From positions 31,922-63,921 of the forward strand of contig JAWCFL010000010.1 of NCBI GenBank assembly GCA_038858525.1: a stretch of DNA of 32,000 nt, written 5' to 3'. Below, in pieces: positions 28,836 through 29,358 of the stretch (within the stretch, counting starts at the first letter, position 1; every line of letters starts with the position of its first letter). The notes below the pieces were generated by a model. The model made no database searches and had not been told where the DNA came from. It worked only from the letters and a program-made list of their open reading frames with translations. Source of the stretch: Candidatus Jordarchaeales archaeon. GTDB taxonomy: Archaea; Asgardarchaeota; Jordiarchaeia; Jordiarchaeales; Freyrarchaeaceae. Position numbers and translations under genes: made by a program.

Positions 28836-29358
28836 GGGAATCGCCCATGTTTCTTGTAGTATTCCGACAGCCCTCCTGACTCTACGATCTCCATTAGGAA
28901 GTCAGGTATAGGGTTAGCGCGTAACTCAACGCCACGTGTTATGTTATATATGCGTCCTGTGCTCACGTCAACCTCCAGCTCGTCTCCTTCCTCAACAGCC
29001 TTGGTTATCCCTCTGCATATGAGGAGGGGGAGACCGACGTTGAACGAGTTGCGGTAGAATATTCGAGCGAAGCTTTCAGCTATGACCATTGAAACGCCTG
29101 CATACTTGAGAACCAGTGGTGCCTGCTCCCTGCTTGACCCACAACCAAAGTTTTTCCCGGCAACTATAATGTCTCCTTTCCTCACTTTCTTAGAGAATTC
29201 AGGGTCTATGCCCTCCATGGCATGCCTGGCAAGCTCATTCATATCGAGCGTCTTAAACTTGTACTCTCCGTGTAGCCCGCGAGGCGAGGCTACATTCCAG
29301 GTATGATGTAATCCGTGTTGACGTCATCCGGAAACTTCCAAACTCTACCTTTAATCAA
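28823..29358 (-). CDS. leuD: 3-isopropylmalate dehydratase/homoaconitase small subunit, split: exon1 29358-29295, exon2 29265-28823; 168 aa if spliced
   Basis: The TTG start overlaps the leuC stop (TTGA) and has a [28 protein letters not shown] runs into a stop, while [18 protein letters not shown]...[14 protein letters not shown]...[11 protein letters not shown] continues in another frame. Removing 29 nt joins them. Confidence 0.85.
29266..29294 (-). other. Putative 29-nt BHB-type mRNA intron in leuD
   Basis: Outer helix UAC/GUA, central helix CUGG/ACGG (C-G, U-G, G-C, G.A), bulges AA|U and AG|A, inner stem GUAGCC/GGCUAC. The splice gives GGA-AAG-TAC (G-K-Y). Confidence 0.7.

Follow-up and report, generated by a model that had tools for sequence, protein, structure and literature searches.

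The window analysed here, a stretch of 32,000 nucleotides (nt) from contig JAWCFL010000010.1 of an Asgard archaeon of the Candidatus Jordarchaeales, carries on its minus strand a compact operon of leuC-type, leuD and leuB-type genes, as read from its open reading frames (ORFs) and from profile matches. Within this operon the leuD gene, which encodes a LeuD-type small subunit, is interrupted by 29 nt that very likely form an intron of the bulge-helix-bulge (BHB) kind. The leuC-type gene (positions 29355-30611 of the window; minus strand, as are all features of the operon) encodes an intact large subunit of 418 amino acids (aa), matching NF001614 over positions 1-415 of 415 as well as the hacA_fam and IPMI_arch subfamilies, and its stop codon TGA (29357-29355) overlaps the TTG start of leuD (29358-29356) in the sequence TTGA. 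Direct reading places a GGAGG motif of Shine-Dalgarno type (29366-29370) 7 nt upstream of this start. At the other side, the end of leuD is overlapped by an intact leuB-type gene (27840-28835), assigned by profile match to an isopropylmalate/isohomocitrate dehydrogenase of 331 aa.

The anatomy of leuD itself is that of a gene in two frames. Exon 1 (29295-29358) starts at TTG, extends over 21 codons and ends on the A that opens a split lysine codon; it is collinear with intron-less orthologues, and its frame, when read on past the 21 codons, runs into ATG TAG. The remainder of LeuD lies in a different frame, in exon 2 (28823-29265), which consists of the AG of the split lysine codon, 146 codons and a stop. 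As an uninterrupted ORF, exon 2 gives only 139 aa from an ATG at 29242 (Met30), yet it matches the NCBIfam model TIGR02087 (LEUD_arch) with 184.8 bits (cut-off 108.95) over positions 26-156 of 157, and its translation holds the GSSRE-containing substrate motif; the N-terminal portion of LeuD missing from this ORF is exactly what exon 1 encodes. Between the two exons lies the insert (29266-29294), which reads UGUAGCCUCGCCUCGCGGGCUACACGGAG from 29294 to 29266 and is composed of one bulge base, an inner hairpin, one strand of the central helix (H') and two bulge bases. Its removal joins GGA-A to AG-UAC, so that the lysine codon is made of A from exon 1 and AG from exon 2, and yields a protein of 168 aa containing IIPGKYKFKT; the predicted junction in the spliced RNA is CCUGGAA followed directly by AGUACAAG. 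The insert is present in one copy only in the genome, which rules out a repeat or an element resembling a miniature inverted-repeat transposable element (MITE).

With its flanks, the insert can be parsed as a BHB structure in which the exons supply one strand of the central helix and the whole of the outer one. The outer helix h pairs UAC (29301-29303) with GUA (29262-29264), both of exon sequence, and measures 3 base pairs (bp) here and up to 6 bp in a related variant (L193, see below). The central helix H is formed by the exon strand CUGG (29297-29300) and the intron strand ACGG (29268-29271), with the pairs C-G, U.G and G-C plus a G.A mismatch. The 5' bulge is AAU (29294-29296), being AAU, CAA or CAU across the variants, with a predicted cut between 29295 and 29294, and the 3' bulge is AGA (29265-29267), being AGA or AAA across the variants, with a predicted cut between 29266 and 29265. 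The inner hairpin h' (29272-29293; GUAGCCU...GGGCUAC; -12.2 kcal/mol) closes directly at the bulge and H', its stem of 6 bp (GUAGCC/GGCUAC) being extended by a U.G pair to 7 bp. An earlier analysis made from the letters alone, here called the sequence-only reading, had proposed this h-B-H-B-h' parse, with cuts AA/U and AG/A, and it proved correct base for base, as did its coordinates for the insert and the leuD start, the TTG start coupled to the leuC stop, the ATG TAG and the change of frame. The product that it had derived by excision, IIPG-K-YKFKT within a protein of 168 aa whose lysine codon exists only after the splice, was likewise reproduced in silico.

We have analysed the same site in the class Jordiarchaeia (Asgard), represented in our collection by 11 species genomes in two families, namely the window's family (5 genomes of 1.7-2.7 Mb) and a sister family (6 genomes of 3.5-3.8 Mb). 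An insert is found at the same leuD codon in all five genomes of the window's family and in three further metagenomic variants, these being obtained from the contigs behind truncated database proteins by a protein cluster search; all six genomes of the sister family read IIPGKYKFK without interruption. No insert was observed at this site in one more relative, nor in 178 other LeuD-family loci of bacteria and archaea, and no additional variant of the intron came from scans of genome and metagenome contig collections with exon 2, in which all the LeuD homologues retrieved were distant ones (≤63% identity). We propose that the intron was gained in the ancestor of the window's family, after its split from the sister family. 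In protein searches, database relatives with at least 79% identity are all truncated products of 131-151 aa, full-length forms being met only from 75% identity downward; the close relatives P0001-P0010 are all deposited in truncated form, one of them under the name '3-isopropylmalate dehydratase small subunit [Candidatus Bathyarchaeota archaeon]'. In the public protein databases, the interruption of leuD has been mis-annotated silently.

The eight intron variants differ in length (23, 25, 27, 27, 27, 29, 29 and 30 nt) and share one architecture, as all of them parse as h-H-B-h'...h'-H'-B-h. The exon strand of the central helix reads C(C/U)GG and comes from the proline and glycine codons, and the intron strand is CCGG, CUGG or ACGG; four of four pairs are formed in seven variants, the window's own being the exception, with alternation between C-G and U.G and between G-C and G.U. 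Both bulges have 3 nt in 8/8 variants, and every variant closes its inner hairpin at the bulge, with a stem of 5-9 bp or, where one base is bulged out, of 7-8 bp. In L005 and L007 this closed hairpin is retained despite quite different sequences, and in L193 a C-G pair is replaced by U-A through a double change. The outer helix has 3-6 bp in seven variants and is interrupted by a mismatch in L005. In agreement, RNAalifold applied to the eight sequences recovers the central and inner helices, with compensatory changes at three pairs. When the cut is made in silico after the second base of each bulge, every variant reads CCN GGN AAG TAY AAG (PGKYK) and gives an open frame of 168-169 aa that is collinear with the orthologues lacking the intron. 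In insert length the variants cover all three residue classes modulo 3, and those in frame contain stops, so that ribosomal frameshifting and read-through of the TAG are ruled out: neither could serve all variants, and precise excision does.

The coding sequence on both sides of the insert is evidently maintained. For exon 2, the ratio of non-synonymous to synonymous substitution rates (dN/dS) between intron-bearing lineages is 0.02-0.11, with synonymous sites near or beyond saturation, and in exon 1 almost every pair shows far more synonymous than non-synonymous differences (8 to 0, 9 to 0 and 12 to 1, among others). Both exons are thus under strong purifying selection. All eight variants also keep the start codon and, ahead of exon 1, a purine-rich motif for ribosome binding (GGAGG in six, GGGGAG in two).

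The genome encodes what the proposed reaction would need. Two paralogues of the splicing endonuclease EndA, located in the regions C3:81835-82089 and C43:5978-6235, score above the cut-off of Pfam PF01974, one of 191 aa that keeps the active-site Tyr, His and Lys and one of 198 aa without the His, and the ligase RtcB is present with 601 bits. We read the EndA pair as an alpha/beta architecture, the kind that would be associated with relaxed substrates; such an architecture has been reported for most Asgard genomes (bioRxiv 10.64898/2026.10.13.758758). In the same genome, 92.7% complete, ARAGORN detects only 11 transfer RNA (tRNA) genes, of which eight contain introns, in part at unusual positions; the majority of its tRNA genes probably escape detection because their introns are multiple or non-canonical. 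This low count with many introns agrees with published work on the class, whose tRNAs are described as extremely rich in BHB introns (PMC11291895; bioRxiv 10.64898/2026.10.13.758758).

We have also searched for other interrupted protein genes by comparing the ORFs of a genome of the sister family (G006) with the window's genome (G000) and looking for alignments that are split across frames or contain an inserted stop. The search covered 2.8 of the 3.58 Mb of G006 and misses introns common to both families, so that the resulting number is a lower bound: at least seven introns of 27-31 nt lie in protein genes, namely in leuD, in five other genes found by this search and in cbf5, in line with the suggestion of the sequence-only reading that the genome be scanned for further frameshifted genes with BHB inserts. 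All six share the architecture of the leuD insert and are restored by the same cutting rule, the outer helix being absent in some. The intron of cbf5 (G000 C1:177182-177211, plus strand, locus L216; 30 nt, with an in-frame TGA) is a canonical hBHBh' structure, with H formed by CACU/GGUG, bulges AGA and AAA, an inner helix of 10 bp and an outer helix of 4 bp; it splits GTL-D-PKVTG, the aspartate codon being created by splicing. That of the elongation factor aEF-2 (C4:81118-81146, plus; 29 nt) separates DTPGHV from DF, with H formed by ACGU/GCGU, an inner helix of 9 bp and no outer helix; here too the aspartate codon G-AC forms only on joining, and the G006 orthologue is without an intron. The remaining four, which on excision are restored to match the G006 protein, are found in rpl44e, for L44e (C1:178227-178256, plus; 30 nt), in a gene that we take from its motif to be DnaG-like (C21:14222-14252, minus; 31 nt), in a membrane protein gene (C3:105835-105865, plus; 31 nt) and in an iron-sulphur (Fe-S) protein gene (C2:18526-18552, minus; 27 nt). 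Inserts located in essential genes, which cannot be pseudogenes, imply that the cell must remove such inserts, and the presence of sister introns in essential translation genes strongly raises the prior for an intron in leuD.

The reciprocal search revealed inserts of BHB type in G006 at sites where G000 has none (loci L225-L364; approximate positions 1619909, 2636153, 1152365, 1873146 and 1452813). They lie in an NadE-like gene (33 nt), a LeuC/HacA paralogue (33 nt), a CCG Fe-S protein gene (39 nt), a gene resembling class-I aminoacyl-tRNA synthetases (30 nt) and, more weakly, an RtcB-like gene (29 nt), and on this comparison the gains look family-specific. A de novo scan of the genome for BHB geometry with joined open frames did not reveal enrichment. 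Loose criteria gave some 33,000 hits on each strand and strict criteria 100-500 altogether; controls with cuts shifted by 1 or 2 nt gave equal counts, and boundaries between genes on the same strand swamp the signal. Two candidates were rejected: an extra segment of 74 nt that shifts the frame at C15:37605-37656 (minus), flanked by a direct repeat of about 40 nt, looks like a tandem duplication or an assembly issue and not a BHB intron, and a candidate on C16 is a run of N, that is, a gap. Separately, about 181 extra bases lie at C1:84222-84419 (plus) between two frames of a protein of about 790 aa that is continuous in G006; this segment could be a longer intron or a real split of the gene.

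Taken together, the presence and absence of the insert among relatives, its conserved structure, the purifying selection on both exons, the splicing machinery and the sister introns in essential genes argue with high confidence that the leuD insert is a BHB intron within the coding sequence, of the relaxed hBHBh'/HBh' kind, and that the leuD messenger RNA (mRNA) is very probably cut and rejoined before translation. The claim of the sequence-only reading, a BHB intron in an Asgard leuD, is therefore supported, and the comparison of leuD among relatives that it had called for bears it out, with an insert in eight variants, none in the sister family and covariation in the stems. From these data we infer the following course of cleavage and ligation. 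In the leuC-leuD-leuB transcript, the exon CUGG would pair with the intron ACGG, the intron hairpin of 7 bp stacking on one side of this helix and the short exon-exon helix on the other, which would leave two bulges of 3 nt on opposite strands. The endonuclease formed from two EndA paralogues, one with the catalytic Tyr-His-Lys and one without the His, would then cut after the second base of each bulge, RtcB would ligate the exons, and the intron would probably be circularised. The join would create the lysine codon A-AG and bring exon 2 in frame, so that a LeuD-type small subunit of 168 aa is produced, with its substrate-recognition region encoded across the junction.

A number of observations weigh against this interpretation. 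The motif of the window's variant is relaxed rather than canonical, its central helix having three pairs plus the G.A mismatch and its outer helix only 3 bp, and for this reason the window's intron may be a somewhat poorer endonuclease substrate than its nearest variant, whose protein is 96% identical and which carries CCGG. The local minimum free energy is no better than that of shuffled sequence (z = -1.13; 22 of 200 shuffles fold as well), so that the support for the motif stems from comparison with relatives and not from thermodynamics. Several variants contain the direct repeat CCGGAA...CCGGAA, which arises from the palindromic H and the A-rich bulge, and in these variants the product by itself does not tell exactly where the cuts fall. 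Finally, the genome holds two intact LeuD paralogues, on C15 and C22, so that LeuD-type function does not strictly depend on the interrupted copy.

Other explanations of the locus may be set against this reading. In translational bypassing, the ribosome would leave the message at the glycine codon GGA and land on the GGA in ...CGGAGAGUAC, the hairpin being skipped without any RNA processing, much as in gene 60 of phage T4, which the locus resembles in having a hairpin-containing gap, a nearby stop and flanking glycine codons. In fact, six of the eight variants have a take-off GGA followed 23-30 nt later by an in-frame GGA, with a hairpin between them and, in most variants, a stop one codon after take-off. 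However, unlike in gene 60, the take-off and landing codons are mismatched in two of the eight (GGC and GGA in L005 and L007), in L005 the stop lies far downstream of the take-off, and in the four variants with an AGA bulge, the window's included, bypassing would insert Glu where all intron-less relatives have the conserved Lys. The second GGA is moreover an automatic by-product of H' (CCGG) followed by an A-rich bulge, the BHB geometry, which bypassing does not need, is kept, and the six other interrupted genes have this geometry without matched take-off and landing codons. We consider bypassing very unlikely at this locus. That the 29 nt are an artefact of sequencing or assembly, absent from the DNA, was also raised by the sequence-only reading; no point was found in favour of it. 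The variant of the window's genome recurs unchanged in seven public assemblies made independently, at different centres and from different runs (the G004 variant recurs in eight), and the identical contig is present in those of SRR21619494, SRR27730034, SRR27730044, SRR27730046, ERZ27245617 and JGI 3300025090. Homologous inserts exist in the seven other variants, and the probability of an artefact is close to nil.

Equally, leuD might be a decaying pseudogene, broken by the insertion, in a cell that relies on the LeuC/LeuD pair of C15 and the solitary small subunit of C22. The two intact paralogues are in line with this, as is the fact that gene callers give only a truncated product of 131-151 aa for the window's leuD and its closest relatives. 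Against it stand the open frames of both exons and their strong purifying selection across lineages in which synonymous divergence is saturated, the insert having changed in length and sequence eight times with no disabling change in the exons, as well as the kept start codon and ribosome-binding motif. The sequence-only reading had held that decay of leuC or leuB together with an intact leuD paralogue elsewhere would indicate a simple pseudogene: such paralogues do exist, but leuC and leuB are intact and the interrupted leuD is under strong purifying selection, which leaves this explanation a very small probability. A similarly slight chance may be given to the possibility that exon 2 alone is the gene, translated as a truncated subunit from the ATG at 29242, with exon 1 as a leftover or as a separate peptide of 22 residues. 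This ATG is present in frame and conserved, but the same methionine is conserved within intron-less orthologues (LDM) and is thus an ordinary internal residue; in addition, exon 1 changes mostly at synonymous positions of its own frame, the truncated form would lose both the substrate-recognition region and positions 1-25 of the profile, and the maintenance of a BHB motif in eight variants would go unexplained.

In respect to the function of the restored protein, exon 2 alone scores 173 against the equivalog model TIGR02084 (cut-off 245.85), with HacB models scoring lower, and the full-length homologue P0014 (72% identical) gives 188.7 bits against the isopropylmalate/citramalate isomerase small subunit of M. 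jannaschii (3VBA) and 145.9 bits against the homoaconitase small subunit 2PKP. The splice junction lies one residue before a Y-x-x-x loop, which reads YKFK in LeuD and YLVY and YLRT in the aligned M. jannaschii small subunits, and which corresponds to the substrate-recognition region of these subunits (PMC7308503). The sequence-only reading had placed the junction within the specificity loop; that it adjoins the substrate-recognition region holds, but strictly it stands just outside. As judged from this alignment, an unspliced or truncated product would be without the loop. Several enzymes of LeuCD/HacAB type are ordinary in archaea, and the two paralogues do not argue for decay of the interrupted gene; that of C15 belongs to an intact LeuC/LeuD pair. 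The one on C22 (locus L002, C22:15281-18673, ORF 1483-2025, minus) is a solitary third small subunit of LeuD type, 59% identical to exon 2, without an adjoining large-subunit gene, its neighbours being one gene that resembles sugar epimerases and one that belongs to no known family.

The closest precedent is the BHB intron in the cbf5 pre-mRNA of Crenarchaeota (Desulfurococcales and Sulfolobales; Yokobori et al. 2009, PMC2738675; reviewed in PMC10485636). As in that case, the leuD insert is a short intron within coding sequence, with a relaxed BHB whose cutting within the bulges is alone able to restore frame and codon, a two-subunit endonuclease of (alpha-beta)2 type and an alternation of presence and absence among related lineages. 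Unlike crenarchaeal Cbf5, LeuD is a metabolic small subunit and not an RNA-modification enzyme, the phylum is Asgard, and the intron is not a single case but one of at least seven in one genome; also, cbf5 splicing in Crenarchaeota has been demonstrated experimentally, whereas that of leuD is deduced here by comparison. According to a 2023 review, cbf5 and one Haloferax mRNA are the known archaeal mRNA substrates, and more are expected (PMC10485636). The latter, HVO_1309 of Haloferax volcanii, is reported as a BHB substrate of the splicing endonuclease that appears spliced in RNA sequencing (PMC7714728, as cited in PMC10485636); as described there it resembles leuD in being a BHB transcript that is neither tRNA nor ribosomal RNA, but it stands as a single case and comes from a euryarchaeon whose enzyme is of the alpha2 kind, whereas the leuD intron interrupts the coding sequence itself. 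In the searchable literature, endonuclease-type splicing of archaeal coding sequence is found for cbf5 only (PMC2738675, PMC10485636), and our literature searches returned nothing on BHB introns in leuD, in EF-2 or in Asgard mRNAs. The proposed mechanism is that of the cbf5 intron, met here in a new lineage and a new class of gene and as part of a multi-gene set.

A comparison with the tRNA introns of the same organisms is also instructive. The leuD intron has the geometry h-H-B-h'...h'-H'-B-h of non-canonical pre-tRNA BHB introns of Freyarchaeia/Jordiarchaeia and Atabeyarchaeia, such as is seen at tRNA position 37/38; the enzymes predicted to act are the same, as is the lineage, and the gains are similarly repeated and lineage-specific. 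Contrary to a pre-tRNA, however, the leuD RNA is translated, so that splicing must precede or compete with ribosomes, and the codons (Pro-Gly, CCN GGN) limit the sequence that the motif can have on its exon half. The papers on tRNA introns of Freyarchaeia, Jordiarchaeia and Atabeyarchaeia make no mention of introns in protein genes (PMC11291895; bioRxiv 10.64898/2026.10.13.758758).

These results have consequences for how such genomes are read. The relatives of leuD are stored as truncated small subunits, and EF-2, L44e and Cbf5 of this genome would be called broken, so that inferences on the metabolism and completeness of Asgard genomes are biased unless such introns are modelled. The junction is predicted precisely, and with it a tryptic peptide that would be diagnostic, its last residue being the lysine made by splicing. 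The sequence-only reading had suggested that the operon would come under the control of the tRNA-splicing machinery; a regulation specific to leucine synthesis looks unlikely, and is unsupported, as introns of this kind are also present in essential genes that are expressed constitutively. A conserved intron in a metabolic operon together with several in essential genes indicates that the heavy tRNA-intron load of the class has spilled into its mRNAs, and provides a natural system for studying both the tolerance of interrupted genes under coupled transcription and translation and the spread of BHB introns. On balance we lean, though only modestly, towards the view that in Jordiarchaeia mRNA splicing by the tRNA-splicing endonuclease is routine and constitutive, many protein genes, essential ones such as those of aEF-2, L44e, Cbf5 and the DnaG-like protein as well as metabolic ones such as leuD, carrying BHB mini-introns of 27-39 nt gained independently in each family. 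If this is true, the cell would have to keep ribosomes off the nascent transcript until splicing is done, and transcription and translation would be partly uncoupled in organisms that are close prokaryotic relatives of eukaryotes.

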